From: an uncultured bacterium | GTDB taxonomy: Bacteria > Bdellovibrionota > JACOXK01 > 2-02-FULL-40-11 | Assembly: GCA_964371555.1 (NCBI GenBank) | Contig: CAYJMQ010000003.1 | Location: forward strand, 1,290 to 65,289 | Length of the DNA stretch: 64,000 nucleotides | Direction of reading: 5' to 3' | In this document: positions 1 through 31,296 of the stretch, piece after piece | Numbering within the stretch: position 1 is the stretch's first letter | Layout: each line of letters begins with the position of its first letter | The notes under the pieces: model-generated | Told to the model about the DNA's origin: nothing | Seen by the model: the letters and a program-made list of their open reading frames with translations, nothing else | The model's database searches: none | Program-made: the position numbers and the translations under genes

Positions 1-733
1 TGGCGTCATAGGTATCAATTCCTTTCGAGGCCAGCCAATTCTTTTGACCTGTGGCCATTGCTTTCAGCGGTTTTGCCCCTGTTACAAAATAGAGAATATC
101 GACATAATGGACCCCCAGATATTGAAAAATATTTGTATGAGGAATCCAGCCTGTAAAAATTTCTTCCGGTATGGTCTTGCGTTGACTGTATTCTACGATC
201 GCATAGAGGGGATCGCCGATATCGCCCCGCTGAATGACTTCTCTTAATTTGAGATTCGCTTCGTCATATCTTTTGTGGAATTCGACAGCCCCATAAACTC
301 CATAAGCTCTCTGGAGATCAATGAGGGAAAGAGCTTGCCGGATTTTGGCAGCCAGCGGTTTTACAACAAGGGCATGCAGGCGGTGTTTGAGGGCATAAGA
401 CGTGATCGGTTCGTGTAGATGGTCAGGCACAACAACGATCGCGCAGGCTGGGCGCTCCATATTTTGAATGATCTTTTCATAAGCCTTTTCGTCTTTTATT
501 TCGAGTGGCGCGTATGAAACAGCAGATGTTACCCCCATCCGTAATTTAAGCTTTTCGATTCGTTCTTTTGAAATCAAGAGACGGCTGGGATCAGTAGCCA
601 CCACCCAGATTTTATGAGCGGCGTGCGTTCTCCCCCATTCAAAAATGGCCGGCATGATGGTCCCATCACTTTCAACGCCCCGCCCGCAGACATACATTCC
701 AGAACCGATGACAACAATATTCAGGGGTTTCAT
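1..733 (-). CDS. Gfo/Idh/MocA-family NAD(P)-binding oxidoreductase. Only the N-terminal part is in the window; the C-terminus lies beyond the left edge.
   Basis: Reverse-strand translation from ATG (complement of 731-733) gives MKPLNIVVIGSGMYVCGRG..., a Rossmann GxGxxG N-terminus typical of sugar oxidoreductases. The start forms an ATGA overlap with the stop of the upstream gene. Confidence 0.55.
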   Translation of the reverse strand, partial: MKPLNIVVIGSGMYVCGRGVESDGTIMPAIFEWGRTHAAHKIWVVATDPSRLLISKERIEKLKLRMGVTSAVSYAPLEIKDEKAYEKIIQNMERPACAIVVVPDHLHEPITSYALKHRLHALVVKPLAAKIRQALSLIDLQRAYGVYGAVEFHKRYDEANLKLREVIQRGDIGDPLYAIVEYSQRKTIPEEIFTGWIPHTNIFQYLGVHYVDILYFVTGAKPLKAMATGQKNWLASKGIDTYDA

Positions 734-2076
734 GAGAAAAAATTTTTAATCAAAGGGCTTAAGAGCTTAAAATCGCTCTCTGTTCTGATTTCCAAAAGTG
801 AATAGGGATTATTCACTTCATAAATACCGACCCTGTCTCCAAAAATATGCCCCCCTCTTAAGAATTCGGGGCGGGTAACAGCCCCGAGCCCTCTTAATTC
901 CAGGTAAATGGGATCCTTAAATTTTCTGGGGGTAAGCCCTTCCTCAAGTTGCTTTATCTCGCCGTTCATTTTTTTCCAAATCGCTTTATTTTCGGGTCTT
1001 GCCGCAATCACGCTATCCAGGCCATGTCGAACTACTTCTTCAATCAGCCGGTCTATTAAATCGGGCGCGCGGAATGGAAATGTAATTTCTAAAGAGACAA
1101 TCCAGTCCGGAATCGAAGCGCCCTCTTCAATCTTTTCCAATGAGTATTGTAAAACGGAAGAAAGATCAACGTAATCTCTTGAAAAAGAGGGATCGCGCAG
1201 AAAGGGGACATCCGCCCCCATTTTTTTTGCGGTTTCGGCGATTTCAACATCATCGGTAGATACGATAACCCTTTTAATATATTTCGATTCGAGGGCGCGA
1301 TGAATGGTATAAGACATGAGAGGGGTATTATCTGAGACGATAATGGGTCCTCGAATTGGAATAATCGCAAGGATGTTAAATGAATTCATGTCGATCGGCG
1401 CATATTCAGTTGATTTAATTTTTTCGAGAATCCGGACCACGTTTTTACATCGCTCCAGATTCCCCTTATGATGAATCCCATGATAATGATAAACACTCGC
1501 GGCCGGGTCATAGATAATTTTGAAATTTTTTTCTAAAATTTTTTGCGCCCAGACGCGGTCTTCAATATTGGTTACGGTTTCATCGAACGGAATTTGCCGC
1601 CAAAGATCTTTTCGAACCATGCTGTTCGCATTGTGGAAAAAACTATCTTTTATTTGCACTTTGCGATCGAGTCCGAAGATCAGTGTCATATCGCGCTTGT
1701 CGAGATCAGGGGTAAACGAAAAAGGCTGCTGTCTTCCATAGACTCCCGCAACATCGGGATCTTCGAAATTTTTTAACAAACTTTCAAGCCAGATATCATT
1801 CACAGGAACACAGTGCCCGGATAAGCAGACAATATAGTCTCCCTGAGATGCCGCAATTCCGATATTGAGCGCTCTTCCCGGCAAATAGTCGATACAGGAA
1901 AGGATTTTTGAGACAGGAAAGGATTTTATTTTTTCCAATGTTTTATCGCTGCTTTCATTGTCGACGACAATGACTTCAAAATTTTTATAGCCCTGAGCAA
2001 AAACAGACGACAAACATTGGGCTATCCATCTTTCTTCGTTTTTTGTTCGGATGATGATCGATACCTTTTTAAACAT
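730..2076 (-). CDS. Fusion protein: N-terminal family-2 glycosyltransferase plus C-terminal NeuA/KdsB-like sugar-nucleotide cytidylyltransferase domain.
   Basis: N-terminus SIIIRTKNEERWIAQCLSSV...VIVVDNESSDKT is a GT2 signature. C-terminal half ILAIIPIRG...RVIVSTDDVEIAETAKKMGADVPFLR resembles acylneuraminate/CMP-sugar cytidylyltransferases. Confidence 0.65.
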   Translation of the reverse strand: MFKKVSIIIRTKNEERWIAQCLSSVFAQGYKNFEVIVVDNESSDKTLEKIKSFPVSKILSCIDYLPGRALNIGIAASQGDYIVCLSGHCVPVNDIWLESLLKNFEDPDVAGVYGRQQPFSFTPDLDKRDMTLIFGLDRKVQIKDSFFHNANSMVRKDLWRQIPFDETVTNIEDRVWAQKILEKNFKIIYDPAASVYHYHGIHHKGNLERCKNVVRILEKIKSTEYAPIDMNSFNILAIIPIRGPIIVSDNTPLMSYTIHRALESKYIKRVIVSTDDVEIAETAKKMGADVPFLRDPSFSRDYVDLSSVLQYSLEKIEEGASIPDWIVSLEITFPFRAPDLIDRLIEEVVRHGLDSVIAARPENKAIWKKMNGEIKQLEEGLTPRKFKDPIYLELRGLGAVTRPEFLRGGHIFGDRVGIYEVNNPYSLLEIRTESDFKLLSPLIKNFFS

Positions 2077-2102
2077 TATTTTCTCCGAAAATGGCTTACT
2101 AC

Positions 2103-2960
2103 TTAAGACATAATAATCCTTTTAAATCTAAAGGGATCGGTTGTCATGTCATTGATTCCATCGATATTAAGAAGGCCGCAAAGGTACCCTGCCTGTTCAA
2201 TATGTTTCATAAGACAGTCGGAGATATCTCTACTGCTCCCAAAGGGGAAAGAAAAGTAATTACAGGATATTCCCATTTTTTTTTCAAGAACGCGCTTGCT
2301 TTCCCCGATTTCATGTATGGCTTCTTCAAGTGGGAGGCGGCTGAGTGAGCGATGTGAAAGACTGTGCGAGGCGATTTCCATGCCATTGAGACTCATGGTT
2401 TTAAGTTCATCCCATTCAAGACAACGATCTGTCAGATGAGAATTGCCAGATGAGGCGCCATTTTTTAATTGGCGCAATACGAACTCAATATCAGCTGTTG
2501 AAGCTGTCTTCAACAGTTTAAGAACCCGACGGCCAAAAGAAGCTTTGTTTTCGAAAAAGCGGCGTTTAAGTTTTTTTCCGCCGATATTTACGGATTCCGG
2601 ACAGTTCCCCCTTTTGAGAGACGACAAAAACTCCCAATCCCACAAAGGCCGCCCGCTGCCGATGTAGTTTGTGACGACGGAAAAAAGCGCTGGGATCCCT
2701 TTTTTCTTTAAAATCGGGAAAATAATTTCGTAATTGTCACAATAGCCATCGTCAAATGTTAAAACGGCGTGATTTTTAAATAATGACTGTTCCTTTATTT
2801 TTTTCAGCGCCTCTGCCATCGAAATAATTGAATAGTGAGAGGCCAGCGCGTCCACCTGTTTTTCAAATTCTTTGACTGTCATCATAGTGTTGAGAGGGTT
2901 AAATCTGACTTCAGGCAGAACGCGATGGTATAAAAAAATGAAAAGATTTCCGGCGTTCAT
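2103..2960 (-). CDS. Polysaccharide deacetylase (NodB/CE4 family).
   Basis: The VLTFDDGYCDNYEIIFPILKKKGIPALFSV motif is typical of NodB-type deacetylases. Confidence 0.7.
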   Translation of the reverse strand: MNAGNLFIFLYHRVLPEVRFNPLNTMMTVKEFEKQVDALASHYSIISMAEALKKIKEQSLFKNHAVLTFDDGYCDNYEIIFPILKKKGIPALFSVVTNYIGSGRPLWDWEFLSSLKRGNCPESVNIGGKKLKRRFFENKASFGRRVLKLLKTASTADIEFVLRQLKNGASSGNSHLTDRCLEWDELKTMSLNGMEIASHSLSHRSLSRLPLEEAIHEIGESKRVLEKKMGISCNYFSFPFGSSRDISDCLMKHIEQAGYLCGLLNIDGINDMTTDPFRFKRIIMS

Positions 2961-3877
2961 CTTAAAGCGTCTCTAAAAAGGAGAAGCCCTTCAGTTAAAT
3001 TGTGTAAACGGGTCGCACAGCGGTTTCTAAACTTTTCAGTATTTAATCTGACACCTTGAGGTCTCATTGCGATTGGAACGGCGGGTGAAACGGCGGGCTC
3101 CCTCATATGGTCCTGTTCTTTGATCAGAGAATCCTCTAAATTCAACTGTTTTGCCGCTCGCATTGCCCATGAGTGTCTATCTATGTAATCGCCGCCAACG
3201 ACATGAAAGACACCGGTTATTTTTTTTTCAAAAAGCTCAGTCATCGCAGAAGCCAAATCCGGCGCGTATGTTGGGGAGCCGGATAAATATGAAGGGGCAT
3301 GGAATGTTTTTCCTTCTTTGAGACACCGATAAAGATTCATAACATAATTGGGGGTCGTCGTTTCAGGATCCCACCCGTAGACATTCGTTGTCCGAAGGAT
3401 GACATAACGGTCCAGATTTTTTTGAATCCATTTCTCCGCTTCGAGTTTCACCATTCCATAGACATTTAAAGGGCGGGGACTGTCAACTTCCCGATAATCG
3501 TCTTTGCCGCCGTCAAAAATATAATCGGTAGAAATAAAAAAGAAAGTCGCCCCCGTTCTTTGGGCATGGCGTCCCAACATTTGGGTTGCTTTAAAATGAA
3601 AGTCTTCGGCAAGCCCCGGCTGCCGCTCGCATAAATCGACGCCGCCCGAAAGATTTGCGCAGTGAAAAATGGCGGCCGGAGATACCTCTGAAAACAGATG
3701 GTCGATCTCCGATTCGTTTACGATGTTTAATTTTCTTAAATTTTTATTTTCTCTCTTACAGGAAGTTCCCAACCAGCGATAACCGGTCGTTCCTGGGGAA
3801 AGTTTTTTCGCAAGCGCGCCCCCCACGAGGCCGTTGGCTCCGATGATCAGCGCGTCTATCTTTCGGGATGATTCCAT
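2957..3877 (-). CDS. RmlD-family NAD(P)H-dependent 6-deoxy-sugar reductase (paralog 1). Start taken at the internal Met (MESSRKIDALIIGANG).
   Basis: IIGANGLVGGALAKKL Rossmann motif, and FFISTDYIFDGGKDDYREVDSPRPLNVYGMVKLEAEKW matching the RmlD substrate-binding region. Confidence 0.65.
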   Translation of the reverse strand: MESSRKIDALIIGANGLVGGALAKKLSPGTTGYRWLGTSCKRENKNLRKLNIVNESEIDHLFSEVSPAAIFHCANLSGGVDLCERQPGLAEDFHFKATQMLGRHAQRTGATFFFISTDYIFDGGKDDYREVDSPRPLNVYGMVKLEAEKWIQKNLDRYVILRTTNVYGWDPETTTPNYVMNLYRCLKEGKTFHAPSYLSGSPTYAPDLASAMTELFEKKITGVFHVVGGDYIDRHSWAMRAAKQLNLEDSLIKEQDHMREPAVSPAVPIAMRPQGVRLNTEKFRNRCATRLHNLTEGLLLFRDALR

Positions 3878-4737
3878 TTTTTCCAGGGGGGGGTTCCCGT
3901 TTGCCAAAGACGATTCAGATATTCGACATCTCTTGCAGTGTCCATACACTGCCAATATCCATCATGCTTATAGGTCATTAACTCACGATCCTGGCAGAGT
4001 TTTTGAAGAACCCCAAATTCCAGATCGCATCTGTCATCCGGCGTGAGACAGTCCAGGAATTTTTTATTAAAAACAAAAAAACCACCGTTGATATAGCCTG
4101 TTTTAATCTGCGGCTTTTCCTCAAACTCACAAACCAGATGACCCTCTATCCGCATCTCTCCGAAACGGGAAGGGGGGTGCACAGAAGTGACTGTCCCAAG
4201 CCGTTTGTGGTTTCTGTGAAACTCTTCCAGCATATTCAGATCGACATCGCTTAAACCGTCCCCATAAGTCAGATGAAAAAAATCGGTTTGAATATAGGGT
4301 TCCAATCGTTTAATCCGCGCCCCTTTCAATGCGTTGAGACCCGTGTTGATGCAAACGATTTCCCAATTTTTTTCGTCTGAAAGGGTGTGTGGCTTTGGAT
4401 GGACTGTCGGGGAAGGGGCTTTAGGATCAAGATAAATCGTAAAATCGTTTGCGATATAACGATAATCGTAAAAATATTTTTTGATGTATTCCCCCCGATA
4501 GCCAAGCGCGATAAGGAACCGATTGAATCCGAATGAAGAATAATATTTCATGATATGCCAAAGAATCGGTTTTCCGCCGATCTCAACCATCGGCTTTGGC
4601 TTGAGTTCGGTCTCTTCCCGCAATCTCGTCCCCATGCCGCCGCAAAGAATGATCACATCCGCTCTTGCGCTGTTTTCTTTCACAATGCCTTCATCATCAG
4701 ACGGAGACCTTCTTCGATGGGGACCCGGGGTTTCCAT
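3856..4737 (-). CDS. rfbF: Glucose-1-phosphate cytidylyltransferase (CDP-glucose pyrophosphorylase, RfbF-like). The exact start is uncertain.
   Basis: VIILCGGMGTRLREETELKPKPMVEIGGKPILWHIMKYYSSFGFNRFLIALGYRG closely matches RfbF/DdhA proteins. Confidence 0.7.
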   Translation of the reverse strand: METPGPHRRRSPSDDEGIVKENSARADVIILCGGMGTRLREETELKPKPMVEIGGKPILWHIMKYYSSFGFNRFLIALGYRGEYIKKYFYDYRYIANDFTIYLDPKAPSPTVHPKPHTLSDEKNWEIVCINTGLNALKGARIKRLEPYIQTDFFHLTYGDGLSDVDLNMLEEFHRNHKRLGTVTSVHPPSRFGEMRIEGHLVCEFEEKPQIKTGYINGGFFVFNKKFLDCLTPDDRCDLEFGVLQKLCQDRELMTYKHDGYWQCMDTARDVEYLNRLWQTGTPPWKKWNHPER

Positions 4738-5546
4738 GAGAATGCCTCTTTAAATTTTTGAACATCGGCAATCACGAAATTTTTTTCTGAATTTTCCGAG
4801 ACGTTGATTTGAGATTTCGCCAGATCTTGATGATCGATTTCCTCAATTTCCAAAATCTTATGAAGAACCTGAAGCACGGAGATTCCACGGCCGGTTCCAA
4901 CATTGAAACAGCGCCAGCCGGAATGTGTGTCTCTTAATGAATAAAGAATTGCGGAAACGACATCGCGAACATGAATAAAATCACGCACCAAAAAGGGTGT
5001 GTTTAATGTAAGTGATTTTTCCCCGGATATATGATGTCGAACAGAATAAATCAGGGAAGGAATTAAAAAGGGATTTCTTTGCCCTTCCCCGTACAGATTA
5101 AAAATCCGCAATGCGGTGACAGCAACATTTAAATAGGTTGAATAATATTCACAGATTTCTTCGCAGACGCTTTTTGACGCCCCATAAATCGTTTTTGCAG
5201 ATCGCGGCGCTTTTTCCGAAAGGGGGATCTCTTCATCTGACGGTAAATAGACAGCAGATGATGAAATCAATACGCAAGAGGCTTTGTATCGATAACAATA
5301 GCGCATGACGGATAACGTTCCTCCCACATTCACATCAAAAAGGGAATCATATTCATCTTGAGTGGTCGCCTTTGTCACAGCGGCAAGATGACAGACGACA
5401 TCTGAAGCTGTCTCACTCTGTTCAATGGTCCGCACATCCGCCCGGTAAGGCTCGACCGAGCTAAAGTATTTGGGGAGCTCCGCCATCAGATGACGTCCCA
5501 AAAAACCGTTGGCTCCTGTCACCAAAATTCTTTTATTGGATAGCAT
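4680..5546 (-). CDS. NAD-dependent epimerase/dehydratase (extended SDR). Probable nucleotide-sugar epimerase or reductase.
   Basis: N-terminal RILVTGANGFLGRHLMAEL Rossmann motif and a YxxxK-type region (YGASKSVCEE). Confidence 0.7.
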   Translation of the reverse strand: MLSNKRILVTGANGFLGRHLMAELPKYFSSVEPYRADVRTIEQSETASDVVCHLAAVTKATTQDEYDSLFDVNVGGTLSVMRYCYRYKASCVLISSSAVYLPSDEEIPLSEKAPRSAKTIYGASKSVCEEICEYYSTYLNVAVTALRIFNLYGEGQRNPFLIPSLIYSVRHHISGEKSLTLNTPFLVRDFIHVRDVVSAILYSLRDTHSGWRCFNVGTGRGISVLQVLHKILEIEEIDHQDLAKSQINVSENSEKNFVIADVQKFKEAFSWKPRVPIEEGLRLMMKAL

Positions 5547-6532
5547 TAGTAACTCAAAATGGATATCAGACTTATCGCCCCTGTGATAAAAGTACAAGCG
5601 TACAAAATCATGACTGCGGTGGTAGCTGAGAGGCCGGCACGCACAAGTTGATGAGAGAGATGATTTGTGTCACCCACATAGATAGGCTGTCGGTTCTTAA
5701 TTCGAATGATAACAACAGTCAGTGTGTCTAAAATAGGGATACTGGCCAAAAGCAAAAGGCAGCTCGAGGCCGTTAAGATATGCACCTGATGCCGGATCAG
5801 ATGTTCGAAAAGCCAAATAGATGATGTCGCAAGAGAAAATCCAAGAAAAAGACTCCCCCCGTCGCCCAGAAAAATCTTTGCTTTTGGAAAATTATACGGA
5901 AGGAAACCGAGCAGACTGCCGATTGGGATTGCAAGAAAGAGGGCCAGCAGCGCATGATCTGTAAAATAGGCGAGCACCGCAAAAAAACCAAGAATAATGA
6001 CTGTTAAGCCGCAGGCGAGGCCATTCATATTATCGAGAAGGTTCAGGGAATTTGTAAGACCCACGATCCAAAAAACGGATAAGAGGATATTGAGAACTTC
6101 ATGAGAAAAAAAATGAAATCGCGCGCTGGAGAGAACAATAATCAGTGCCGATAAAATCTGGGAAATCAATTTCAGGCGATAGTCGATCATTTTAATATCG
6201 TCCAGAGTACCTACTATCAGCATGATCAAGGCTCCAATAAAATAAAAAGCAAGCTGAAGCAGGAATGTTTCGGATTCCAAAAACATAAAGGGGGACTTAT
6301 TAAAATGCCATTGGTAGCTTACGATGAAATAAAAACATAAACTCAGGCAAAAACTCAAAAAAATCGCAATTCCGCCAAGCCTCGGCGTTGGAAGGGTATG
6401 AACTTTGCGCGAGGAGGGGTAGTCAAAAATATTCATTTTAATCGAGAATCTTCTTGCCAAGGGAGTCAACAAATAAGATAGAAAAAAAGAGATGAGAAGC
6501 AACAACCACAACACCTTGAAAAATAAAAACAT
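5546..6532 (-). CDS. Polyprenyl-phosphate sugar-1-phosphate transferase (MraY/WecA family).
   Basis: Multi-pass membrane protein carrying the DDxxD-like DDIKMIDYRL and NSLNLLDNMNGLA motifs of the WecA/MraY family. Confidence 0.75.
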   Translation of the reverse strand: MFLFFKVLWLLLLISFFLSYLLTPLARRFSIKMNIFDYPSSRKVHTLPTPRLGGIAIFLSFCLSLCFYFIVSYQWHFNKSPFMFLESETFLLQLAFYFIGALIMLIVGTLDDIKMIDYRLKLISQILSALIIVLSSARFHFFSHEVLNILLSVFWIVGLTNSLNLLDNMNGLACGLTVIILGFFAVLAYFTDHALLALFLAIPIGSLLGFLPYNFPKAKIFLGDGGSLFLGFSLATSSIWLFEHLIRHQVHILTASSCLLLLASIPILDTLTVVIIRIKNRQPIYVGDTNHLSHQLVRAGLSATTAVMILYACTFITGAISLISILSY

Positions 6533-6570
6533 AGGGGACTTTTACAAAGTTAACAAATTAAAGATTACAG

Positions 6571-7764
6571 ATGGGTGAAGAGAAAGTCAAGCCGCGAGTC
6601 CGAGTGGCGCCTAAAATCGTTAGAATCTTTTCGCGTCTGAATATTGGAGGTCCCGCGATTCATGTTATTCTTCTGAGTGAAAAACTGTCTCCGAAATATG
6701 AAACGATTCTTGCAACAGGCAAAGTCGGCGCTCTGGAAGGCGATATGTCTTATTTGCTGGAGGAAAAACGCTCTTTTCATCATGTTTTTATTCCGGAGCT
6801 TGGAAGAAACATTCGTATTTGGAATGATTGGGTTGCATTTTGGAAAATTTTCAGACTTCTTCTTCGCGAGAAACCGGCGATTGTTCATACCCATACTTCA
6901 AAAGCGGGCGTTTTGGGGCGAATAGCCTCGGTTTTGGCTCGTGTTCCGGTGCGGATTCATACCTTTCACGGGCATCTCTTTGAAGGTTATTTTGGAAAGA
7001 TAAAAACCTTTTTGATTATCATGGCAGAAAGAATTTTAGCACATTTTACCACAGCCATTGTTGCGATATCAGAGGCGCAGAAAAGGGATTTACAAAAATT
7101 TGGGATTTGCCCCCTCTTTCCAGCCGAAGAAAAGATCGTTGTCATCCGTCTCGGTTTTGATTTGACCCCTTTTCAAAAGGAGAGAGCGGATTCAGAGAGG
7201 CAAAGATTTGGACTTCCAAAGGATCGATATCTGATAGGGCTTGTTGCCAGACTCATCCCCATCAAAAATCATGCGTCTTTTTTAAGAATAGCAAAGAAGG
7301 TATTGCTGCAGAGAAAGGATGTCCATTTTGTCATTGTGGGCGATGGGGAGTTAAAAGATATTCTTAAACAACAGATTTCAGCGCTTGAGATCGATTCCCA
7401 TGTTTCACTGCTTTCCTGGCAGAAAGAAGTTAAACCGATTTATGATGCGCTGGATATTGTTTGCCTGACATCTTTCAATGAAGGGACCCCCGTTTCGCTG
7501 ATCGAAGCCCAGGCCTGCGGGAAACCGGTGGTTGCGTTTCGTGTGGGAGGCGTGGAAGATGTGATTATTTCGGGCAAAAGCGGTTATCTTGTGGAGATCG
7601 GGGATGAGTCTGCATTTTCTGAAAGGATTTTATCTCTTCTGGCTCATCCGGAGCAAAAAGCGGAAATGGGCAATATTGGAAAAAAAGTGATTTTAGAAAA
7701 TTTTCATGAGGGACGTCTCATCAAAGAAATGGATCAGCTCTATCAGGATTGTCTTTCCAGATAA
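6571..7764 (+). CDS. Glycosyltransferase, GT1 fold (CAZy GT4-like).
   Basis: C-terminal EGTPVSLIEAQACGKPVVAFRVGGVEDVI is the GT4 EX7E-region signature. Confidence 0.8.
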   Translation: MGEEKVKPRVRVAPKIVRIFSRLNIGGPAIHVILLSEKLSPKYETILATGKVGALEGDMSYLLEEKRSFHHVFIPELGRNIRIWNDWVAFWKIFRLLLREKPAIVHTHTSKAGVLGRIASVLARVPVRIHTFHGHLFEGYFGKIKTFLIIMAERILAHFTTAIVAISEAQKRDLQKFGICPLFPAEEKIVVIRLGFDLTPFQKERADSERQRFGLPKDRYLIGLVARLIPIKNHASFLRIAKKVLLQRKDVHFVIVGDGELKDILKQQISALEIDSHVSLLSWQKEVKPIYDALDIVCLTSFNEGTPVSLIEAQACGKPVVAFRVGGVEDVIISGKSGYLVEIGDESAFSERILSLLAHPEQKAEMGNIGKKVILENFHEGRLIKEMDQLYQDCLSR

Positions 7765-7822
7765 TTTACCAGATACTTTAAATGATCCACTCAAAAAATT
7801 GACAAAAATATGTGTGTAAGGC

Positions 7823-9136
7823 ATGGATATAATCATGGATCTTTCGAGCCGCATTAAAGAGAAAAGCGCCAGGGTTGCAGTCATCGGTCTTGGCTATGTG
7901 GGGCTTCCATTGTCTCTTGAATTTCTCAAGGCTGGTTTTAAAGTTGTCGGTATAGATATCAATAAAGACAGGATCAAAAAATTAGAATCGGCTGAATCTT
8001 ATATAACCGATATTTCTTGCGAACAGATTCGCAATGCCCTTCAGACAGGGCGATTTACCCCGACATCTGATTTTTCTATTCTGGCGGATACCGATGTTAT
8101 TTCTATCTGTGTCCCTACGCCGCTTAGAAAAACGAAAGAGCCTGATATTTCATTTATTGTTTCTGCTGTAAAGAAAATCAAAAATTATCTTTCGAAAGGA
8201 CAGCTTGTCATTTTAGAGAGCACCACTTATCCCGGCACGACGGAAGAAGTTGTTCTGCCAGAACTGGAGAAAACCGGTCTTCAGGCAGGGAGGGATTTTT
8301 ACCTTGCCTTTTCACCTGAGAGAATCGACCCCGGGAATAAGAAATACGCGATTGCAAACACGCCAAAAATTGTCGGTGGAATCACCCCCAATTGCACGGA
8401 GCTTGCGGTCTCTTTTTATTCAACGGTGGTGGAAAAAGTTTATCCGGTTTCGAGCTCCCGGGCGGCTGAGATGGTAAAGCTTTTGGAAAACACCTTTCGT
8501 GCTGTGAATATTGGTCTTGTGAATGAAATTGCGATTGTTGCAGACCGGTTAAAGCTCGACGTTTGGGAAATTATCGATGCCGCGGCGACGAAACCGTTTG
8601 GATTTCTCCCTTTTTACCCGGGACCCGGTTTAGGGGGGCATTGTATTCCTGTAGATCCCCATTATCTTTCCTGGAAGCTCAATGCGCAGGGCTACAACCC
8701 AAGGTTTATCGAACTTGCGAGAGAGATTAATTCAAAGATGCCAACGGTTGTTGTGGAAAAGATCGCGGATGCCCTCAATCGATTTAAACGCTCAATCAAT
8801 GGCTCGAAAATTCTTATTTTGGGGGTTGCCTATAAAAAAGATGTGGGAGATATCCGGGAATCGCCGGCGCTGGATGTGATCGAGGGATTAAAAGGGCGCG
8901 GCGCAGAGGTTTTCTATGAAGATCGCTATTGCCCGGAATTTGAACATCATGGACATTCATATCAATCGATCTCTTTAGAAACGGCCGATCTTTCCTCCTA
9001 CGATTGTGTTTCGGTCCTCACCGACCATTCGTACTATGATTGGGGCGCAATTGCGGAATCTGCCACGATAATCGTCGATTGCCGAAACGCGACGCGTGGT
9101 TTAAAGAGTTTCCGGGATAAAATCATAAAGATTTGA
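7823..9136 (+). CDS. Nucleotide-sugar dehydrogenase (UDP-glucose/UDP-N-acetyl-hexosamine dehydrogenase family).
   Basis: VAVIGLGYVGLPLSLEF NAD-binding motif and a GGHCIPVDP catalytic Cys region. Confidence 0.85.
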   Translation: MDIIMDLSSRIKEKSARVAVIGLGYVGLPLSLEFLKAGFKVVGIDINKDRIKKLESAESYITDISCEQIRNALQTGRFTPTSDFSILADTDVISICVPTPLRKTKEPDISFIVSAVKKIKNYLSKGQLVILESTTYPGTTEEVVLPELEKTGLQAGRDFYLAFSPERIDPGNKKYAIANTPKIVGGITPNCTELAVSFYSTVVEKVYPVSSSRAAEMVKLLENTFRAVNIGLVNEIAIVADRLKLDVWEIIDAAATKPFGFLPFYPGPGLGGHCIPVDPHYLSWKLNAQGYNPRFIELAREINSKMPTVVVEKIADALNRFKRSINGSKILILGVAYKKDVGDIRESPALDVIEGLKGRGAEVFYEDRYCPEFEHHGHSYQSISLETADLSSYDCVSVLTDHSYYDWGAIAESATIIVDCRNATRGLKSFRDKIIKI

Positions 9137-10248
9137 TGCGGGTTATCATCATAGGGGCTGGTGTCGTAGGCTGCGCAATTGCAAAGGAGCTCTCAGAACC
9201 CAACATAGAAGTCCATGTTCTTGAAAAGAACTCAAAAACAGGGGAGGGGGTCACAAGCCGAAATAGTGGTGTTATCCACGCGGGGCTCTATTATCCACCA
9301 CATTCTCTGAAGGCACGGCTTTGCGTTGAGGGGAGAGGGCTGCTTTATGATTGGTGTGAAAAGAAAGGCGTCCCCCATCGAAAAACAGGAAAGCTGATAG
9401 CAGCGCTTCTTCCTGCGGAAGAGGCGCTAAAAAACATTTATAAGAACGCGATAACAAGTGGAGTTTCACCATCTGGTCTGAGATGGATTTCAAAAAAAGA
9501 AATTCAAAAGATCAATCCTTATATCACAGGTGATATCGCCCTTCATTCGCTGCAATCGGGGATTGTCGATGCCGATGCCCTTTGTTTTTCATTTTATAGA
9601 GAGGCTTGTCAAAAGGGGGCAGAGTTTCATTTTTATTGTGATGTGAATGGCATCAATCGAGTATCCTCTTGCTACCTCATCCGCACCTCAAGGGGGGATC
9701 TCGAAGCTGATATCGTCATTAACGCTGCCGGTCTCTATGCCGATGTGATTTCAAAACTCGCTGGATGTGATCGTTATACAATTTATCCCTGGCGAGGCGA
9801 CTATTTTAAAGTGAATCTTCCTTACCCAATCGATATTTTGGTCTACCCTGTCCGAAAACCCGATGCGGCAGGTCTTGGAATTCATCTGACAATCGATCTG
9901 AACTCTCAAACCTTTTTGGGTCCAGATTCAGATCCGCCAAGCGCTTTTGAAATCAAAAATCACGCCGCGTTGCAAAAAATGAAAGAAGATTTTTCTGAAA
10001 GGCCGGAGAAACTCATGAAATTTTATGAGGCTGCGTCTCAACTTTTATCCGGCCTCAAACCCGAAATGCTCACCTATGAGACCTGCGGGATTCGTCCCAA
10101 ACTTCGCGCGTTTGATTCCTCCAATGAAGAAAAGGATTTTGTAATCTCCGAAGATCTCCCGGGTTTTTTCAATCTCATCGGCATCGAAAGCCCCGGCCTC
10201 ACCGCAAGCCCCGCGATTGCGCGGCATATAAAGAAGCTGCTGACATAG
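9133..10248 (+). CDS. FAD-dependent oxidoreductase of the L-2-hydroxyglutarate oxidase/dehydrogenase (LhgO) family.
   Basis: VIIIGAGVVGCAIAKEL and TSRNSGVIHAGLYYPPHSLKARLCVEG match LhgO-type flavoenzymes. ATGA start/stop overlap with the preceding dehydrogenase. Confidence 0.7.
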   Translation: MMRVIIIGAGVVGCAIAKELSEPNIEVHVLEKNSKTGEGVTSRNSGVIHAGLYYPPHSLKARLCVEGRGLLYDWCEKKGVPHRKTGKLIAALLPAEEALKNIYKNAITSGVSPSGLRWISKKEIQKINPYITGDIALHSLQSGIVDADALCFSFYREACQKGAEFHFYCDVNGINRVSSCYLIRTSRGDLEADIVINAAGLYADVISKLAGCDRYTIYPWRGDYFKVNLPYPIDILVYPVRKPDAAGLGIHLTIDLNSQTFLGPDSDPPSAFEIKNHAALQKMKEDFSERPEKLMKFYEAASQLLSGLKPEMLTYETCGIRPKLRAFDSSNEEKDFVISEDLPGFFNLIGIESPGLTASPAIARHIKKLLT

Positions 10249-15772: not shown

Positions 15773-16849
15773 ATGAAAGGACTCATTTTAAGCGGCGGGC
15801 ATGGCACAAGGCTCCGCCCGATTACTCACACATCGGCAAAGCAGCTTGTTCCTGTGGCGAATAAACCGATTCTCTTTTATGGCATTGAGGCGCTGAGGGA
15901 CGCGGGGATCAGGGATATCGGTATCGTTGTTGGGGAAACAAAAGATGAAATCAGGGGGGCTATTCAGCAAGGGGAAAAATTCGGGGTCAGAATCACCTAT
16001 ATTGAGCAGCCAGAACCGCTCGGTCTTGCCCATGCGGCGCTTACGGCAGAGCCTTATTTGAAAGATTCTGAATTTATCATGTATCTGGGAGATAATTTAA
16101 TTAAAGGAGGGGTCAGGGATTTTGTCGAAAAATTTAAAAGGGAACGCCCCTCCGCTCAGATCCTTCTTGTAAAAGTGCCAAACCCGCAGCAATTTGGAGT
16201 GGCAGAGATCGAACATCAAAATGGAGTGACAAGGGTGGTTCGTCTGGTTGAAAAACCAAAAGATCCCAAAAGCGATTTGGCTCTGGCCGGTGTTTATCTT
16301 TTTAATTCTGATATTTTTAAAGCTGCCCGATCGATCGATTTTTCCGGACGGGGTGAACTTGAAATTACAGACGCAATTCAATGGCTGATCGATCATCATT
16401 ACAAAGTGTACTCCGATATTATTAAGGGATGGTGGAAAGACACCGGAAAATTAGAAGATCTTCTCGAGGCAAATCGGATGATGTGCGATGATCTGGAAGC
16501 AAAGATTTTAGGTGTGGTTGATGCGCGATCCAAAATTGAATTCAGGGTTTTTATCGACGAGGGGGCAGTCATTGAAAACAGCGTCATTCGCGGTCCCTCT
16601 ATGGTTGGGAAAAATACAAAGATCGTCGATTCTTATGTGGGGCCTTTTACTTCCATAAATGATCATTGCGAAATCAGAGGGAGTGAGATAGAGCACAGTA
16701 TCATTCTACAGGGGAGCAAGATTATGAATATTCGTCATCGGATATCGGACAGTCTGATCGGAAAAAATGTTGAAATTGCCGGCAATGTCCGACGAACGAA
16801 GTGTCATCAATTTATGGTTGGCGATAGTTCGAGAATTGAACTGACATGA
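15773..16849 (+). CDS. rmlA: Glucose-1-phosphate thymidylyltransferase, long form with a C-terminal left-handed beta-helix.
   Basis: MKGLILSGGHGTRLRPITHTSAKQLVPVANKPILFYGIEAL N-terminus. Its 358-aa length matches long-form RmlA. Confidence 0.85.
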   Translation: MKGLILSGGHGTRLRPITHTSAKQLVPVANKPILFYGIEALRDAGIRDIGIVVGETKDEIRGAIQQGEKFGVRITYIEQPEPLGLAHAALTAEPYLKDSEFIMYLGDNLIKGGVRDFVEKFKRERPSAQILLVKVPNPQQFGVAEIEHQNGVTRVVRLVEKPKDPKSDLALAGVYLFNSDIFKAARSIDFSGRGELEITDAIQWLIDHHYKVYSDIIKGWWKDTGKLEDLLEANRMMCDDLEAKILGVVDARSKIEFRVFIDEGAVIENSVIRGPSMVGKNTKIVDSYVGPFTSINDHCEIRGSEIEHSIILQGSKIMNIRHRISDSLIGKNVEIAGNVRRTKCHQFMVGDSSRIELT

Positions 16850-17316
16850 TTACAAAGGAATTGATTTCAGGGGTTCAAACAAAAAAACTGACAGTGATCC
16901 CTGATGAGCGGGGGCGTTTAATGGAAATCCTTCGTTCGGATGAGGCGATTTTTAAAAAATTTGGACAGCTTTATATGACGGCTGCTTCCGACGGTGTCGT
17001 GAAAGGATGGCATTATCACAAAGTTCAGTGGGATAACTTTTCTGTGGTCAGGGGGATGATCAAGCTTGTGCTCTATGACAGCCGATCTGATTCACCGACA
17101 TATCGCAAGATCAATGAATTCTTCATCGGCGAATATAATCCGCTGCTGGTTCACATTCCCCCCTATGTCTATCATGGCTTCAAGGGGATCAGTCATCCTG
17201 AAGCAATCGTAATTAATTGTCCGACGGAGGTTTATCATTACAAAGATCCGGATGAATTTCGTGCCGACCCGCATAATAGTGAAATCCCTTATGACTGGTC
17301 ACGGCGTGATGGATAA
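16846..17316 (+). CDS. rmlC: dTDP-4-dehydrorhamnose 3,5-epimerase.
   Basis: Cupin fold with the WHYHKVQWDNFSVVRGMIKLVLYD motif. ATGA overlap with rmlA. Confidence 0.85.
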   Translation: MITKELISGVQTKKLTVIPDERGRLMEILRSDEAIFKKFGQLYMTAASDGVVKGWHYHKVQWDNFSVVRGMIKLVLYDSRSDSPTYRKINEFFIGEYNPLLVHIPPYVYHGFKGISHPEAIVINCPTEVYHYKDPDEFRADPHNSEIPYDWSRRDG

Positions 17317-17352
17317 AGGCAGGCTTTTTAAAAAGCATCAGATGATCAAAGC

Positions 17353-18327
17353 ATGAAGCTCTTGGTGACCGGGGGAGCGGGATTTATTGGCTCGGCATTC
17401 ATTCGCGCGGTTATAAGAGCGCGTCCTTCCTATAAAGCGCTCAATGTCGATAAACTGACTTACGCCGGGAATCTTAAAAATTTAGAAGAGATTGAAAAAT
17501 CTGAACAATACTCTTTTTCGAAAACAGATATTGCAAATTACGAGGCCATTCGTCACGTTGTTTCGGCATCTCCCCCTGATGCCATTGTCCATTTTGCGGC
17601 TGAATCACACGTCGATCGATCGATTCTTAATTCGAGAAATTTTGTAGACACAAACATTGTGGGGACGCACACACTTCTCGAAATTGCGCGGGAATTTAAA
17701 ATAAAGCGATTTGTCCATGTTTCTACGGATGAGGTCTATGGGGCGTTAGGGGGAGAGGGGTCTTTTACAGAATCTTCTCCGCTTGCGCCGAATAGTCCTT
17801 ATGCGGCAAGCAAAGCCTCTTCAGATCTTTTGGTTCGTTCCTATTTTAAAACGTATAGGCTGCCTGTCGTTGTCACAAGATCGGTCAATAATTATGGTCC
17901 TTACCAGTATCCTGAAAAGCTGATCCCTCTTTTTATTATCCGGGCGATGCAGGATCGCCCCTTGCCCGTTTATGGCGACGGTCTTTATGTGCGGGATTGG
18001 ATCCACGTTGAAGATCATTGTCTGGCGCTTCTTTCCGTGCTGGAAAATGGAAAGGAAGGGGAAATTTATAATATCGGCGCGCGTTGCGAAAAGAAAAATA
18101 TCGATATCGCGCTTCAGATTCTAAAGATAATGAACAAGCCTCAATCATTGGTTCAATATGTCGAGGATCGTCCGGGTCACGACAGACGATATGCGATCGA
18201 TCCTTCCAAAATTGAACGGGATCTTGGGTGGCGGGCAATGCGTCATCTTGATGATGAACTCCCGGCTCTCATTCGTTGGTATGAGGAACACGAGCTATGG
18301 TGGCAGGGCGCCGAAAAAAAATCTTAG
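17353..18327 (+). CDS. rmlB: dTDP-glucose 4,6-dehydratase.
   Basis: MKLLVTGGAGFIGSAF...DKLTYAGNLKNL and a YAASKASSD catalytic YxxxK. Confidence 0.9.
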   Translation: MKLLVTGGAGFIGSAFIRAVIRARPSYKALNVDKLTYAGNLKNLEEIEKSEQYSFSKTDIANYEAIRHVVSASPPDAIVHFAAESHVDRSILNSRNFVDTNIVGTHTLLEIAREFKIKRFVHVSTDEVYGALGGEGSFTESSPLAPNSPYAASKASSDLLVRSYFKTYRLPVVVTRSVNNYGPYQYPEKLIPLFIIRAMQDRPLPVYGDGLYVRDWIHVEDHCLALLSVLENGKEGEIYNIGARCEKKNIDIALQILKIMNKPQSLVQYVEDRPGHDRRYAIDPSKIERDLGWRAMRHLDDELPALIRWYEEHELWWQGAEKKS

Positions 18328-19169
18328 TTCTGGGGGGGGAGGGACTTTTGGGAGCCGAAGTGATTCGGCATTTTTCCAAAGGGGCGTATGACGTCAAAGG
18401 GGCGTCTCGTTCAGAACTCGATATAACGAAGGGGCAGGAAGTTGCCATTTGGATTGAGCGTCTGCATCCGGATTTTGTCATCAATTGCGCCGCGCTTTCG
18501 AATGTCGATTATTGTGAAGAACACCGGGAAGAGGCTTTTCGTGTCAATGCGGAAGGGGTCAGGAATATCTGTTGCGTGCTTTCAGAAACCGGAGGGAAGT
18601 TGGTTCATATCTCGACCGACTATGTATTCGATGGCGACAAAGGGGCCTCTTATGAGGAAACAGATTCCGTCAATCCCCGCAGTGTCTATGCGGAAAGTAA
18701 GCTAAAAGGGGAAGAGTATGTAGAACGGTTTTTGCCAGAGAGCCTTATTGTGCGGGTTCAGTGGCTTTACGGAAGCTGTGGGACAAATTTTTCAAGCCGG
18801 GTCATTCGTGAAATTTCAGAATCTTCTTATGTCTCTCCCTATCGTCTCATCGAAGATCGTGTGGGTTCTCCAACAGATGTTTCAGAAGTAGCCAAGGGAT
18901 TGGAGGCGCTGATCGCTAAAGATTGCTCGGGGCTTTTTCATCTTTCAAGCAGCGGCTGCTGTTCGTGGTTTGAATTTGGCAAGATGATATTCGAACTGTG
19001 TGGTGATGAGAAAGCTCAAAAGATGATTCAGGCTGTTCGGGAGAAAGACATCAGGCGTCCTGCCCACCGGCCACGGTTTTCAGCTTTTTCATGTCATAAA
19101 TTGCAAAAGGAGACCGGCCACACCCCCTTACATTGGAAAGAGATGCTTCGGGTTATGATAAAAGGCTAA
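18297..19169 (+). CDS. rmlD: dTDP-4-dehydrorhamnose reductase (paralog 2).
   Basis: ILVLGGEGLLGAEV and HISTDYVFDGDKGASYEETDSVNPRSVYAESKLKGE. Confidence 0.85.
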   Translation: MVAGRRKKILVLGGEGLLGAEVIRHFSKGAYDVKGASRSELDITKGQEVAIWIERLHPDFVINCAALSNVDYCEEHREEAFRVNAEGVRNICCVLSETGGKLVHISTDYVFDGDKGASYEETDSVNPRSVYAESKLKGEEYVERFLPESLIVRVQWLYGSCGTNFSSRVIREISESSYVSPYRLIEDRVGSPTDVSEVAKGLEALIAKDCSGLFHLSSSGCCSWFEFGKMIFELCGDEKAQKMIQAVREKDIRRPAHRPRFSAFSCHKLQKETGHTPLHWKEMLRVMIKG

Positions 19170-31291: not shown

Positions 31292-31296
31292 AACCT

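Follow-up and report, generated by a model that had tools for sequence, protein, structure and literature searches.

Several described systems resemble parts of the locus reported here. The CMP-nonulosonate and CMP-Kdo synthetases of the CTP_transf_3 family (NeuA; PseF, 9FTB/9FTC; VcCMAS, 6IFD; NmCNS, 1EYR; KdsB) have been dissected by mutation: K21A abolishes activity (PMC6580227), D211A and Q104E reduce kcat 15,000-fold and 800- to 20,000-fold, respectively, and the activity left in D209A was below what could be measured (PMC2901514). GT2 enzymes of GT-A fold are represented by SpsA of B. subtilis (1QGQ/1H7Q), WrtF (9OMH), GalT1/CgT (5HEA) and PcManGT (6YV7), and two-domain GT-A polymerases by the K4 chondroitin polymerase (2Z86) and PmHS2 (8VH7). 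In the ElaABC cassette for C8-epimerisation of CMP-legionaminic acid (A. baumannii KL49, V. vulnificus), a CTP_transf_3 enzyme is combined with ElaA, a Gfo/Idh/MocA dehydrogenase that oxidises a CMP-sugar, and then with a separate reductase (PMC13656337). Finally, the CDP-3,6-dideoxyhexose pathway of Salmonella and Yersinia employs RfbF/DdhA, RfbG/DdhB, RfbH and RfbI.

The stretch of DNA analysed, 64,000 nucleotides in length (the window), contains two compact divergent operons with 10 genes in approximately 11.5 kb (Table 1). A sequence-only reading had described a polysaccharide-type locus of ten genes; all ten were found where it had placed them, and HMM searches upheld its domain calls and enzyme families. 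Some of the model scores fall short of their cut-offs: the WecA/MraY-family gene scored 103 bits with TIGR02380, under the model cut-off, the top equivalog models for the 6-dehydrogenase (UDP-ManNAc and UDP-GlcNAc dehydrogenases) were every one under cut-off, and the LhgO-like flavoprotein reached 217 bits with NF008726 (cut-off 299). The gene of this flavoprotein overlaps that of the dehydrogenase by 4 nt, and its family (30-34% identity) occurs in 12-14 further loci that contain the fusion gene described below. The NodB-type deacetylase has no obvious signal peptide, and no Wzx, Wzy or ABC exporter genes were found within the cluster.

Table 1. Features of the glycan locus and of the nearby rml operon, in window coordinates.
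Feature	Coordinates	Strand	Evidence
Gfo/Idh/MocA oxidoreductase	2..733	-	PF01408 + PF22725; N-terminal 244 aa, remainder past window start
GT2-CTP_transf_3 fusion	730..2076	-	single unbroken 448-aa ORF; PF00535 + PF02348
Fusion N-terminal GT-A (GT2) domain, aa 1-220	1417..2076	-	PF00535 4e-29
Fusion C-terminal CMP-nonulosonate-synthetase-like domain, aa 235-448	733..1374	-	PF02348 37 bits
NodB-type polysaccharide deacetylase (Polysacc_deac_1)	2103..2960	-	PF01522 2.7e-23
RmlD-family NAD(P)-dependent reductase paralog (RmlD_sub_bind)	2957..3955	-	PF04321 168 bits
RfbF-type glucose-1-phosphate cytidylyltransferase	3856..4737	-	TIGR02623 291 bits, full model length, cut-off 300
Extended SDR, epimerase/4-ketoreductase type	4680..5597	-	PF01370
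WecA/MraY-family polyprenyl-phosphate sugar-1-phosphate transferase (Glycos_transf_4), initiating enzyme	5546..6532	-	PF00953 112 bits
GT4-family (GT-B fold) glycosyltransferase (Glycos_transf_1), first gene of the divergent operon	6571..7764	+	PF00534 + PF13439
Nucleotide-sugar 6-dehydrogenase, UDP-HexNAc type (WecC/TviB-like)	7823..9136	+	TIGR03026 444 bits, cut-off 190
FAD-dependent oxidoreductase (DAO), LhgO-/type-2 glycerol-3-P oxidase-like	9133..10248	+	PF01266 204 bits
rmlA(long)-rmlC-rmlB-rmlD, dTDP-L-rhamnose operon	15773..19169	+	TIGR01208 471, TIGR01181 461, TIGR01214 268 bits, all above cut-offs

Both Pfam domains of the fusion lie in one ORF, PF00535 at aa 6-158 (102 bits) and PF02348 at aa 250-375, where the C-terminal half matches the cytidylyltransferase HMM with 37.1 bits (cut-off 22.6). 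A frameshift or stop between the halves, which the sequence-only reading had named as one outcome that would overturn it, was not present; the ORF is unbroken, and a frameshift artefact is excluded by the hundreds of independent assemblies in which proteins of ~450 aa combine the two domains in this way. Nor is it uncommon, as had been supposed: homologues at 47-64% identity were found in more than 200 species genomes from more than 10 phyla, and 496 clusters (50% identity) match it at E<=1e-30. In Foldseek searches with an AF2 model (pLDDT 82) the top whole-chain matches were 2Z86 and 8VH7, since these polymerases also consist of two tandem domains of the nucleotide-diphospho-sugar-transferase fold. 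The superposition is poor, however (rmsd ~20 A; TM-score normalised to query 0.31-0.38), and whereas both polymerase domains are active GT2 enzymes with DXD, the second domain of the fusion is cytidylyltransferase-like and degenerate.

Conservation is concentrated in the N-terminal domain, predicted to be the catalytic part of the protein. In the family alignment all 53 positions conserved at 90% or more lie in residues 6-209, and family members share 50.5% identity with the window protein in this domain versus 20.6% in the C-terminal one. Residues 1-220 have the fold of the GT2 enzymes (WrtF, SpsA and PcManGT were matched by Foldseek), along with their N-terminal nucleotide-binding signature (VDNxSxD, Asp39/Asp44) and central acidic pair (E172-D173). 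Unlike these enzymes, the fusion has S86-G87-H88-C89 where DXD is expected, its SGH aligning with the DSD of GalT1, as well as H197-x-H199 and, at the usual P-x-Y-N site, R-T-x-N-E; the pseudo-cytidylyltransferase domain of ~215 aa is a further addition. All 121 aligned sequences (the window protein and 120 representatives of the family) have S-x-H-C, and both this motif and the x-H-x-H-G motif ~110 residues downstream are essentially universal across the family. The histidines of H-x-H could aid in metal binding, and without DXD the domain may not be a classical Leloir transferase; no NCBIfam equivalog model came near its cut-off for this domain.

The C-terminal domain has the fold of CMP-Pse and CMP-Neu5Ac synthetases (TM-score normalised to target 0.70-0.76 against 9ftc and 6ifd). 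In common with the CTP_transf_3 synthetases it has a strand LEITFPFR corresponding to their 'LQPTSPLR', an Arg-containing 'PRQ' segment and the equivalent (R294) of the cytosine-selecting Arg71. In contrast to them, it lacks the P-loop (GS-K-R/G-x-P-x-K): an 8-residue deletion, seen both in the HMMER alignment to NeuA 9ftb and in a MAFFT alignment with 16 canonical stand-alone enzymes, removes the site of Gly14, Ser15, Lys16 and the essential Lys21. The catalytic Gln104 is replaced by E330, and the Mg-binding Asp209-x-Asp211 by E429-x-R431 when aligned to mouse CMAS and to canonical neighbours. TIGR03584 (PseF) gave 65 bits (cut-off 206). From the residues lost we predict a domain without cytidylyltransferase activity.

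These losses bear on the proposal that the fusion couples CMP-sugar activation directly to transfer, the C-terminal domain using CTP to make a CMP-sugar that the GT2 domain transfers at once by substrate channelling. Such a bifunctional enzyme would account for two Pfam domains above their gathering thresholds in a single ORF, for the synthetase fold with its retained Arg71 equivalent and PFLR, TFPFR and TPRxFK motifs, and for purifying selection on the C-terminal domain (dN/dS 0.067 against the related locus L006; the N-terminal domain, at 0.086, is likewise under such selection); a GT domain without DXD would also suit a monophosphate (CMP) donor. Within the close subfamily of the window protein (at least 58% identity) many C-terminal residues are invariant, which is compatible with a genuine but non-canonical catalytic activity. 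Yet every one of the changes listed above cripples characterised enzymes on its own (PMC2901514, PMC6580227), no C-terminal residue is conserved family-wide, and the locus has no ulosonic-acid synthase, the only gene of the DAHP-synthase family being the housekeeping kdsA ~30 kb away. The gene neighbourhood points the same way: of the related loci that are flanked on each side by 5 kb or more, 48 of 52 (92%) carry a separate canonical CTP_transf_3 gene within a search radius of 8 kb. Because of the motif losses and this separate enzyme, self-contained activation and transfer is unlikely, and we regard the bifunctional enzyme as highly improbable.

The same neighbour suggests a different role for the degenerate domain. 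CTP_transf_3 enzymes are domain-swapped dimers, and for that reason the dead domain might heterodimerise with the canonical enzyme and so dock the glycosyltransferase onto the enzyme that activates its sugar; the window lineage would have lost this partner and kept only homodimerisation or CDP-sugar binding. In 48 of 82 loci the stand-alone gene lies directly upstream of the fusion (-1 or -2), and the fusion has, at aa ~355-400, a region matching the dimerisation insert. CMP-sialate synthetases are, moreover, dimeric, with an Arg donated across the interface (PMC2901514). On the other hand, strong purifying selection on the domain persists in the partner-less lineage, and the insert region is the part of the model with the lowest confidence (pLDDT <50 at residues 368-392). 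We consider a tether of this kind unlikely.

The window also has the Gfo/Idh/MocA oxidoreductase, the conserved partner of the N-terminal GT-A domain. Its start codon overlaps the stop codon of the fusion by 4 nt (ATGA), a full-length orthologue of 394 aa is present in L006, and it shares 53% identity with the Gfo family that adjoins the fusion in 45-48 of ~80 loci; an enzyme of this type lies within 8 kb of the fusion in 44 of the 52 well-flanked loci. The best PDB matches of the window-type enzyme include 3EZY, also a close PDB neighbour of ElaA. The usual neighbourhood of the fusion (CTP_transf_3, Gfo/Idh/MocA and Ldh_2) follows the same logic as ElaABC, except that its candidate reductase is Ldh_2 rather than an SDR, and that ElaABC has no glycosyltransferase fusion. 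The window has the Gfo member alone; CTP_transf_3, Ldh_2 and NeuB are absent, and inference from other loci may therefore not carry over.

The constant neighbours of the fusion (CTP_transf_3, Gfo/Idh/MocA and Ldh_2) are precursor enzymes, and it could be that the 'GT2' domain glycosylates or hydrolyses a CMP- or CDP-sugar that the C-terminal domain holds, in precursor biosynthesis and not in polymer assembly. The S-x-H-C domain (45-54% identity) is also fused to the nonulosonate-synthase domains NeuB and SAF (P0266, P0225), and ElaABC is a precedent for modification at the nucleotide-sugar level (PMC13656337). The NeuB loci, however, carry PseG-PseH or LegG-type enzymes of their own, so the fusion would be no replacement for the known hydrolase step; WrtF, SpsA and TarP, which are GT2 enzymes of the same fold class, are ordinary transferases. 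This explanation, which is further weakened in that we know of no nucleotide-linked disaccharide pathway of the kind, is unlikely.

The sugar supply of the locus was also reconsidered. The RfbF-type enzyme is its only cytidylyltransferase with an intact signature, and 11 other fusion loci encode homologues at 45-61% identity. This enzyme is in common with the Salmonella/Yersinia pathway, but the locus has no RfbH-type (E1) or RfbI-type (E3) enzyme and no CDP-glucose 4,6-dehydratase. The adjoining SDR was rejected as a 4,6-dehydratase: it scored 54 bits with TIGR02622 (cut-off 278), has SSSAVY at the site of the dehydratase TDE, and its nearest solved relatives are the epimerase/reductase enzymes GDP-6-deoxy-D-mannose reductase, GalE and MoeE5. 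Since the dehydratase is missing, the gene content does not predict the CDP-activated 6-deoxyhexose that had been proposed. The rml operon, with a 156-aa RmlC cupin ORF (PF00908, 59 bits), was indeed found nearby, ~5.5 kb away beyond folK, an aminotransferase gene, dapB, dapA, dapF and lolA. The cluster reductase is a real second RmlD-family paralog, 30% identical to the RmlD of that operon and below cut-off for TIGR01214 (156 bits, cut-off 224); its true start is probably internal, at Met27 (about 3877).

The sequence-only reading had also raised O-antigen-like hypervariability; at the depth of comparison available there is no sign of it, and a relative with ~90% nucleotide identity is fully collinear. 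Around an 82%-identical homologue the order is again 290-aa ORF, NodB, fusion and downstream ORF, the two unannotated ORFs occupying the RmlD-like and Gfo positions; there, and in the 96% relative too, the deacetylase stands in the same place. Housekeeping genes flank the locus: folK and the dap genes on one side and, as seen in the 96% relative, cobalamin adenosyltransferase, Rieske, pantothenate kinase and birA genes on the other. The envelope genes kdsA, kdsD and lptC/A, an ABC ATPase gene placed by position as putative lptB (44849..45571), and downstream ORFs that we take to be rpoN-hpf-rapZ mark the host, an uncultured groundwater bacterium, as a diderm.

The explanation that we favour, with moderate confidence, is that the divergent operons serve a lipid-linked cell-envelope glycan, the fusion being a glycosyltransferase that has a non-catalytic C-terminal module and works with the Gfo enzyme. 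The WecA-family enzyme would begin the glycan on polyprenyl phosphate, and the GT4 enzyme and the fusion would lengthen it. Nucleotide-sugar tailoring would fall to the RfbF-type CDP-glucose synthase, the GalE/reductase-type SDR, the RmlD-like reductase, the Gfo/Idh/MocA enzyme, the UDP-HexNAc 6-dehydrogenase, the LhgO-like flavoenzyme and NodB. The fusion would act as a GT-A transferase and not as a bifunctional activator-transferase, its C-terminal module binding a cytidine nucleotide or nucleotide-sugar, or dimerising, and would cooperate with the translationally coupled oxidoreductase, which by analogy with ElaA probably oxidises a cytidine-nucleotide-linked sugar. In the window lineage RfbF would be the source of this sugar, because the stand-alone CTP_transf_3 partner of most other genomes is absent. 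Gene content, domain folds, motif losses, family distribution and neighbour counts are observed; the identities of donor and acceptor, the role of the C-terminal domain and the Gfo substrate are what we infer. Taken together, this is an ordinary cell-surface glycan locus, one of whose enzymes represents an uncharacterised family of glycosyltransferases that carry a pseudoenzyme domain.

The ten open reading frames named in the sequence-only reading were all present, and profile searches (Pfam and NCBIfam) upheld the family calls made for them. Seven genes run head to tail with small overlaps on the minus strand, and folK, an aminotransferase gene, dapB, dapA, dapF and lolA lie between this locus and the rml operon. 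All four enzymes of the dTDP-L-rhamnose pathway (rmlABCD) are present in the window, with scores of 470.9 bits for RmlA-long (cut-off 320), 460.7 for RmlB (cut-off 365), 267.8 for RmlD (cut-off 224) and, for RmlC, a PF00908 match of 59.3 bits (cut-off 27). The second RmlD-family paralog also proved real, the two proteins being 30% identical.

Features of the window, with strand and profile scores where available
Feature	Position	Strand	Remarks
Gfo/Idh/MocA oxidoreductase	2..733	-	cut by window edge; ATG overlaps fusion stop codon
GT2–CTP_transf_3 fusion	730..2076	-	448 aa
NodB deacetylase	2103..2960	-	
RmlD-family reductase	2957..3955	-	156 bits, below cut-off 224
RfbF-like glucose-1-P cytidylyltransferase	3856..4737	-	TIGR02623 291.0 bits over full model, cut-off 300.25
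SDR	4680..5597	-	
WecA/MraY-family initiating transferase	5546..6532	-	
GT4 glycosyltransferase, NDP-sugar 6-dehydrogenase and LhgO-like flavoprotein	6571..10248	+	divergent from minus-strand genes
rmlA(long)-rmlC-rmlB-rmlD	15773..19169		all four above curated cut-offs
ORF without Pfam match (E<=1e-4)	19166..20284	-	372 aa
Two small overlapping ORFs	30965..31617	+	108 and 115 aa
ORF without Pfam match (E<=1e-5)	34101..35249	-	382 aa
ORF without Pfam match (E<=1e-4)	40613..41878	+	421 aa
ORF without Pfam match (E<=1e-4)	41697..43703	+	668 aa
LptC/LptA ORF	43866..44843	+	325 aa; LptC domain aa 30-187, LptA/LptD_N domain aa 199-303
Putative ABC ATPase ORF in lptB position	44849..45571		
ORF without Pfam match (E<=1e-4)	55726..57975	+	749 aa
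Tocopherol-cyclase-family protein and adjoining DUF1646 membrane protein	61422..62546 and 62566..63600	-	PF14249, 3e-39 (tocopherol-cyclase-family protein)

The closest public relative, GCA_964392415.1 from Hainich groundwater, shares about 90% nucleotide identity with the window and 96% amino-acid identity in the fusion. Its gene order is the same and its far flank is housekeeping (cobalamin adenosyltransferase, Rieske, pantothenate kinase, birA); the cluster therefore forms an island of its own, with 10 genes in about 11.5 kb. Pfam and NCBIfam profiles found no Wzx, Wzy, Wzz or ABC exporter gene among these ten, and the island, with housekeeping flanks and neither a flippase plus polymerase nor a Wzm/Wzt exporter, does not have the composition of a Wzx/Wzy- or ABC-dependent O-antigen or capsule cluster. 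An ABC-2 pair is located about 48 kb away, and nothing ties it to the cluster. A short contig with an 82%-identical homologue shows this arrangement too; domain calls were obtained there only for NodB and the fusion, a 290-aa ORF in the RmlD-like position and a downstream ORF in the Gfo position having no family call. Variability of the O-antigen kind, which the sequence-only reading had raised, was not visible at the depth afforded by these two comparisons. As a cluster for an envelope glycan, the locus is ordinary. In the approximately 90% relative, a frameshift near 'LDPEAPP/PTVH' interrupts the orthologue of the RfbF-like gene (L006:7420-8261, the same as L001), which is called there as two ORFs, one of 123 aa and one of 125 aa; the first ORF is also just 123 aa long in an ENA assembly from the Hainich site. 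Either the gene is truly a pseudogene or the assembly has a homopolymer error.

The host is predicted to be a diderm making Kdo and LPS, because the window elsewhere encodes kdsA, kdsD, the LptC/LptA ORF and a putative lptB-position ABC ATPase, together with ORFs that, from the first 40 residues of each, we take to be pyrG, rpoN, hpf, rapZ, metK, ahcY, clpP, clpX and lon. The LptC/LptA ORF, a single reading frame directly upstream of the ABC ATPase ORF, looks like an LptC-LptA fusion. Two of the five large ORFs without a Pfam match lie between kdsD and this gene, where LPS-related genes are expected. The two small overlapping ORFs, downstream of a histidine kinase/response regulator pair, resemble, by eye, a toxin-antitoxin pair of the RelE/HigB type. 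The tocopherol-cyclase family is unusual in a non-photosynthetic bacterium. An Rfam scan of the window gave no match.

The N-terminal half of the fusion matched PF00535 at 102.1 bits (cut-off 23.3) over aa 6-158. In an AF2 model built from 121 homologues (pLDDT 82, pTM 0.77; pLDDT about 84-97 across residues 1-120), Foldseek assigned this half a probability of 1.0 to the GT-A GT2 enzymes WrtF, SpsA, PcManGT and TarP. The DXD motif, which holds the divalent metal and the donor diphosphate, was not found in this domain: the DSD of GalT1 (5hea) aligns to S86-G87-H88. In its place (L/I)-S-(A/G/S)-H-C was observed in all 121 aligned sequences, comprising 120 family representatives and the window protein, and an x-H-x-H-G motif (H197, H199) is almost universal in the family. 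The motif of the glycosyltransferase half, S-x-H-C / H-x-H, is non-canonical.

The C-terminal half is recognisable as a cytidylyltransferase fold. PF02348 scored 37.1 bits (cut-off 22.6), covering just model positions 23-130 of 217, and in the AF2 model this half matched CMP-Pse5Ac7Ac and CMP-Neu5Ac synthetases (9FTC, 6IFD) with a target-normalised TM-score of 0.70-0.76. Equivalog assignments to PseF or KdsB were not obtained (TIGR03584, PseF, 65.1 bits vs a cut-off of 205.7; KdsB models about 19 bits). The P-loop that binds the CTP phosphates (Arg12, Gly14, Ser15, Lys16 and Lys21 of characterised enzymes) is absent from the fusion: an Arg or Lys is retained at position 242, and the next 8 residues, including both lysines, are deleted. 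Two alignments, one of them a profile alignment to NeuA 9FTB and the other made with MAFFT against 16 canonical neighbours, place the deletion after the IP-x-R-G strand, and none of the 120 family representatives has a full-length P-loop. The Mg-binding Asp209-x-Asp211 of NmCNS is replaced by E429-x-R431, and the catalytic Gln104 by E330; these three residues are invariant in a close subfamily of 121 sequences, as is R294, the equivalent of Arg71, which selects cytosine in characterised enzymes (PMC6580227). In these, K21A abolishes activity (PMC6580227); kcat falls 15,000-fold with D211A and 800 to 20,000-fold with Q104E, and the activity of D209A is below what could be measured (PMC2901514). 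To judge from these residues, nothing of the catalytic signature is left intact in the cytidylyltransferase half. The earlier proposal that the protein couples CMP-sugar activation to transfer is not supported, given the loss of the P-loop, the Mg-binding Asp pair and Gln104 from the fused domain.

The architecture had also been regarded as uncommon, which was not borne out by searches that returned hundreds of members across phyla. A search of 5.8 billion proteins yielded more than 3,500 matches, the best 120 of which are 444-471 aa long and share 58-96% identity with the window fusion, each having both Pfam domains. An exhaustive HMMER scan of 1.84 billion cluster representatives gave 496 at E<=1e-30, most of them full length, with identity down to about 31%, and in a one-genome-per-species scan 213 genomes carried the family at 47-64% identity. 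These carriers include Omnitrophota, Planctomycetota, Nitrospirota, Desulfobacterota, Bdellovibrionota, Acidobacteriota, Elusimicrobia, CPR lineages, Cyanobacteria (including Prochlorococcus), Pelagibacteraceae, Legionellaceae and cultured Roseibium; marine SAR11 and Prochlorococcus and groundwater Omnitrophota, Planctomycetota and CPR bacteria are among the hosts. A plasmid search returned only stand-alone N-domain homologues (31-40% identity) annotated 'glycosyltransferase'. Family members are publicly annotated as 'glycosyltransferase', 'rhamnosyltransferase' or 'CMP-N-acetylneuraminic acid synthetase', and no description of the family was found in the literature on the domain pair and on bifunctional GT/cytidylyltransferase enzymes.

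Conservation differs between the two halves. Median identity to the window fusion among 120 full-length representatives was 50.5% for the N-domain vs 20.6% for the C-domain; all 53 positions conserved at 90% or more fall within residues 6-209, and more divergent members lack even the Arg in the IP-x-R-G strand. Comparison with the approximately 90% relative gave dN/dS values of 0.086 and 0.067 for the two halves, both of which are under strong purifying selection in the window's lineage. Because of this selection the C-domain is regarded as functional, but, with no family-wide conserved positions in it, not as a conserved catalyst. Taken together, these results indicate that the fusion is an uncharacterised GT2 glycosyltransferase with a pseudo-cytidylyltransferase domain, and that it is widespread rather than rare.

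To place the family in its genomic context, the neighbours of 82 members were clustered, 52 of the loci having at least 5 kb on both sides. A separate CTP_transf_3 gene was found within 8 kb in 48 of these 52, a Gfo/Idh/MocA gene in 44 and an Ldh_2 gene in 30; in 48 of all 82 loci the CTP_transf_3 gene stands at position -1 or -2 to the fusion. The stand-alone CTP_transf_3 members that were aligned have an intact 'IPARMGSTRLxxKN' P-loop. Such a near-constant separate cytidylyltransferase is expected if the fused domain does not catalyse that reaction, and this redundant partner, together with the motif losses, makes it very improbable that the fusion is a truly bifunctional activator-transferase. 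A tether, by which the fusion would heterodimerise with the neighbouring synthetase, is less improbable, though still unlikely. Directly upstream of the fusion in L003, L008-L010, L015, L017, L023, L035, L063 and other loci, the CTP_transf_3 protein has an intact P-loop, but '(I/V)-K-(R/T)-x-E-D-L' at the site of the Mg-binding D-x-D of NeuA/PseF-type enzymes; because of this replacement, it may represent a distinct, uncharacterised cytidylyltransferase subfamily.

Several gene orders recur: Gfo, Ldh_2, CTP_transf_3, fusion, 641-aa unknown, ABC in Omnitrophota and Planctomycetota; Ldh_2, CTP_transf_3, Gfo, fusion, methyltransferase, TPR, FAD in Desulfobacterota; and CTP_transf_3, fusion, Gfo, DAHP-synthase-like, shikimate-DH-like in Alphaproteobacteria, Prochlorococcus and Acidobacteriota. 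The surroundings frequently contain complete pathways for pseudaminic or legionaminic acid, as well as KdsB-like genes, aldolases, B12-radical-SAM enzymes and methyltransferases. In two proteins of the representative library, P0266 (503 aa) and P0225 (337 aa), an S-x-H-C GT-A domain about 50% identical to that of the window is joined to nonulosonate-synthase domains (NeuB and/or SAF) in place of the cytidylyltransferase-like one. From these fusions and the nearby nonulosonate pathways we conclude that the family belongs to loci making heavily modified acidic (ulosonic) sugars. The GT-A domain was also considered as a stand-in for the NDP-sugar hydrolase step (PseG or LegG), and this was rejected because NeuB-containing loci have their own PseG-PseH or Epimerase_2 genes. 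Two families of about 640 aa without a Pfam match recur beside the fusion in Omnitrophota and Planctomycetota (L005, L009, L011, L013-L018 and others), cluster 5 being found in 32 loci and cluster 7 in 18, and an ABC exporter frequently comes next; they are candidate polymerases or transferases.

The window retains just the fusion-Gfo pair of this module. Searches of the 64 kb with family representatives (tblastn) detected neither a stand-alone CTP_transf_3 nor an Ldh_2 or NeuB gene, and the only DAHP-synthase-family match is the housekeeping kdsA beside kdsD. When neighbours were reassigned by best hit, only Gfo, RfbF (in 11 other fusion loci), the FAD enzyme (in 12) and an RmlC-like cupin recurred with the fusion; the other genes around the pair, for NodB, the SDR, the RmlD-like reductase, WecA, GT4 and the UDP-HexNAc dehydrogenase, are additions specific to the lineage. 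A CDP-activated 6-deoxyhexose, predicted earlier for this glycan, is not supported. Its synthesis requires a CDP-glucose 4,6-dehydratase, and none was found: the best TIGR02622 scores, 53.8 bits for the locus SDR and 101.9 for RmlB, are far from the cut-off of 278, and RmlB, which belongs to the dTDP pathway, is the window's sole 4,6-dehydratase. The locus SDR has SSSAVY in place of the T-D-E acid/base motif of dehydratases, and the solved structures nearest to it are reductases and epimerases (GDP-6-deoxy-D-mannose reductase, GalE, MoeE5). For this window, neither a CDP-6-deoxyhexose nor a self-contained activation-transfer enzyme is any longer predicted.

ElaABC is a mechanistic precedent for the module: CMP-legionaminic acid, the product of its CTP_transf_3 enzyme, is proposed to be oxidised at C8 by a Gfo/Idh/MocA enzyme, after which a reductase finishes the epimerisation (PMC13656337). 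Most other fusion loci have the full ElaABC-like set (canonical CTP_transf_3, Gfo/Idh/MocA and reductase), whereas the window has the Gfo member alone; 3EZY is among the closest PDB neighbours of the window-type Gfo, as reported for ElaA (PMC13656337). In our preferred reading of the window, the cytidine-linked sugar would come from RfbF, a CDP-glucose synthase by type, and be tailored by Gfo together with one of the reductases; the fusion would be a glycosyltransferase, and its dead synthetase domain would bind a cytidine nucleotide or dimerise the enzyme. We tentatively suggest, as an idea with a low chance of being correct, that the S-x-H-C GT-A and degenerate synthetase domains form a new class of glycosyltransferase on cytidine-linked sugars: the C-domain would be a receptor for the CMP- or CDP-sugar, the GT-A domain would use the bound sugar as donor or glycosylate it while nucleotide-linked, and the Gfo/Idh/MocA enzyme would oxidise the same nucleotide sugar. 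We know of no GT2 enzyme that uses a CMP- or CDP-sugar bound in that way as donor. That the GT domain acts on the nucleotide sugar itself is rather doubtful, to about the same degree as the tether.

The value of these findings lies in the fusion protein, the locus itself being routine, and is chiefly family-level insight and the correction of an annotation: the lost C-domain signature and the non-canonical GT motif correct a mis-annotation that is likely propagating. Since its members are located in hypervariable surface-glycan islands of abundant environmental bacteria, the family is a tractable target for glycoenzymology. If the receptor-type glycosyltransferase proposed here is real, it would define a cross-phylum module for modified acidic sugars in surface glycans, with hosts including SAR11, Prochlorococcus, Omnitrophota, Planctomycetota and CPR bacteria.
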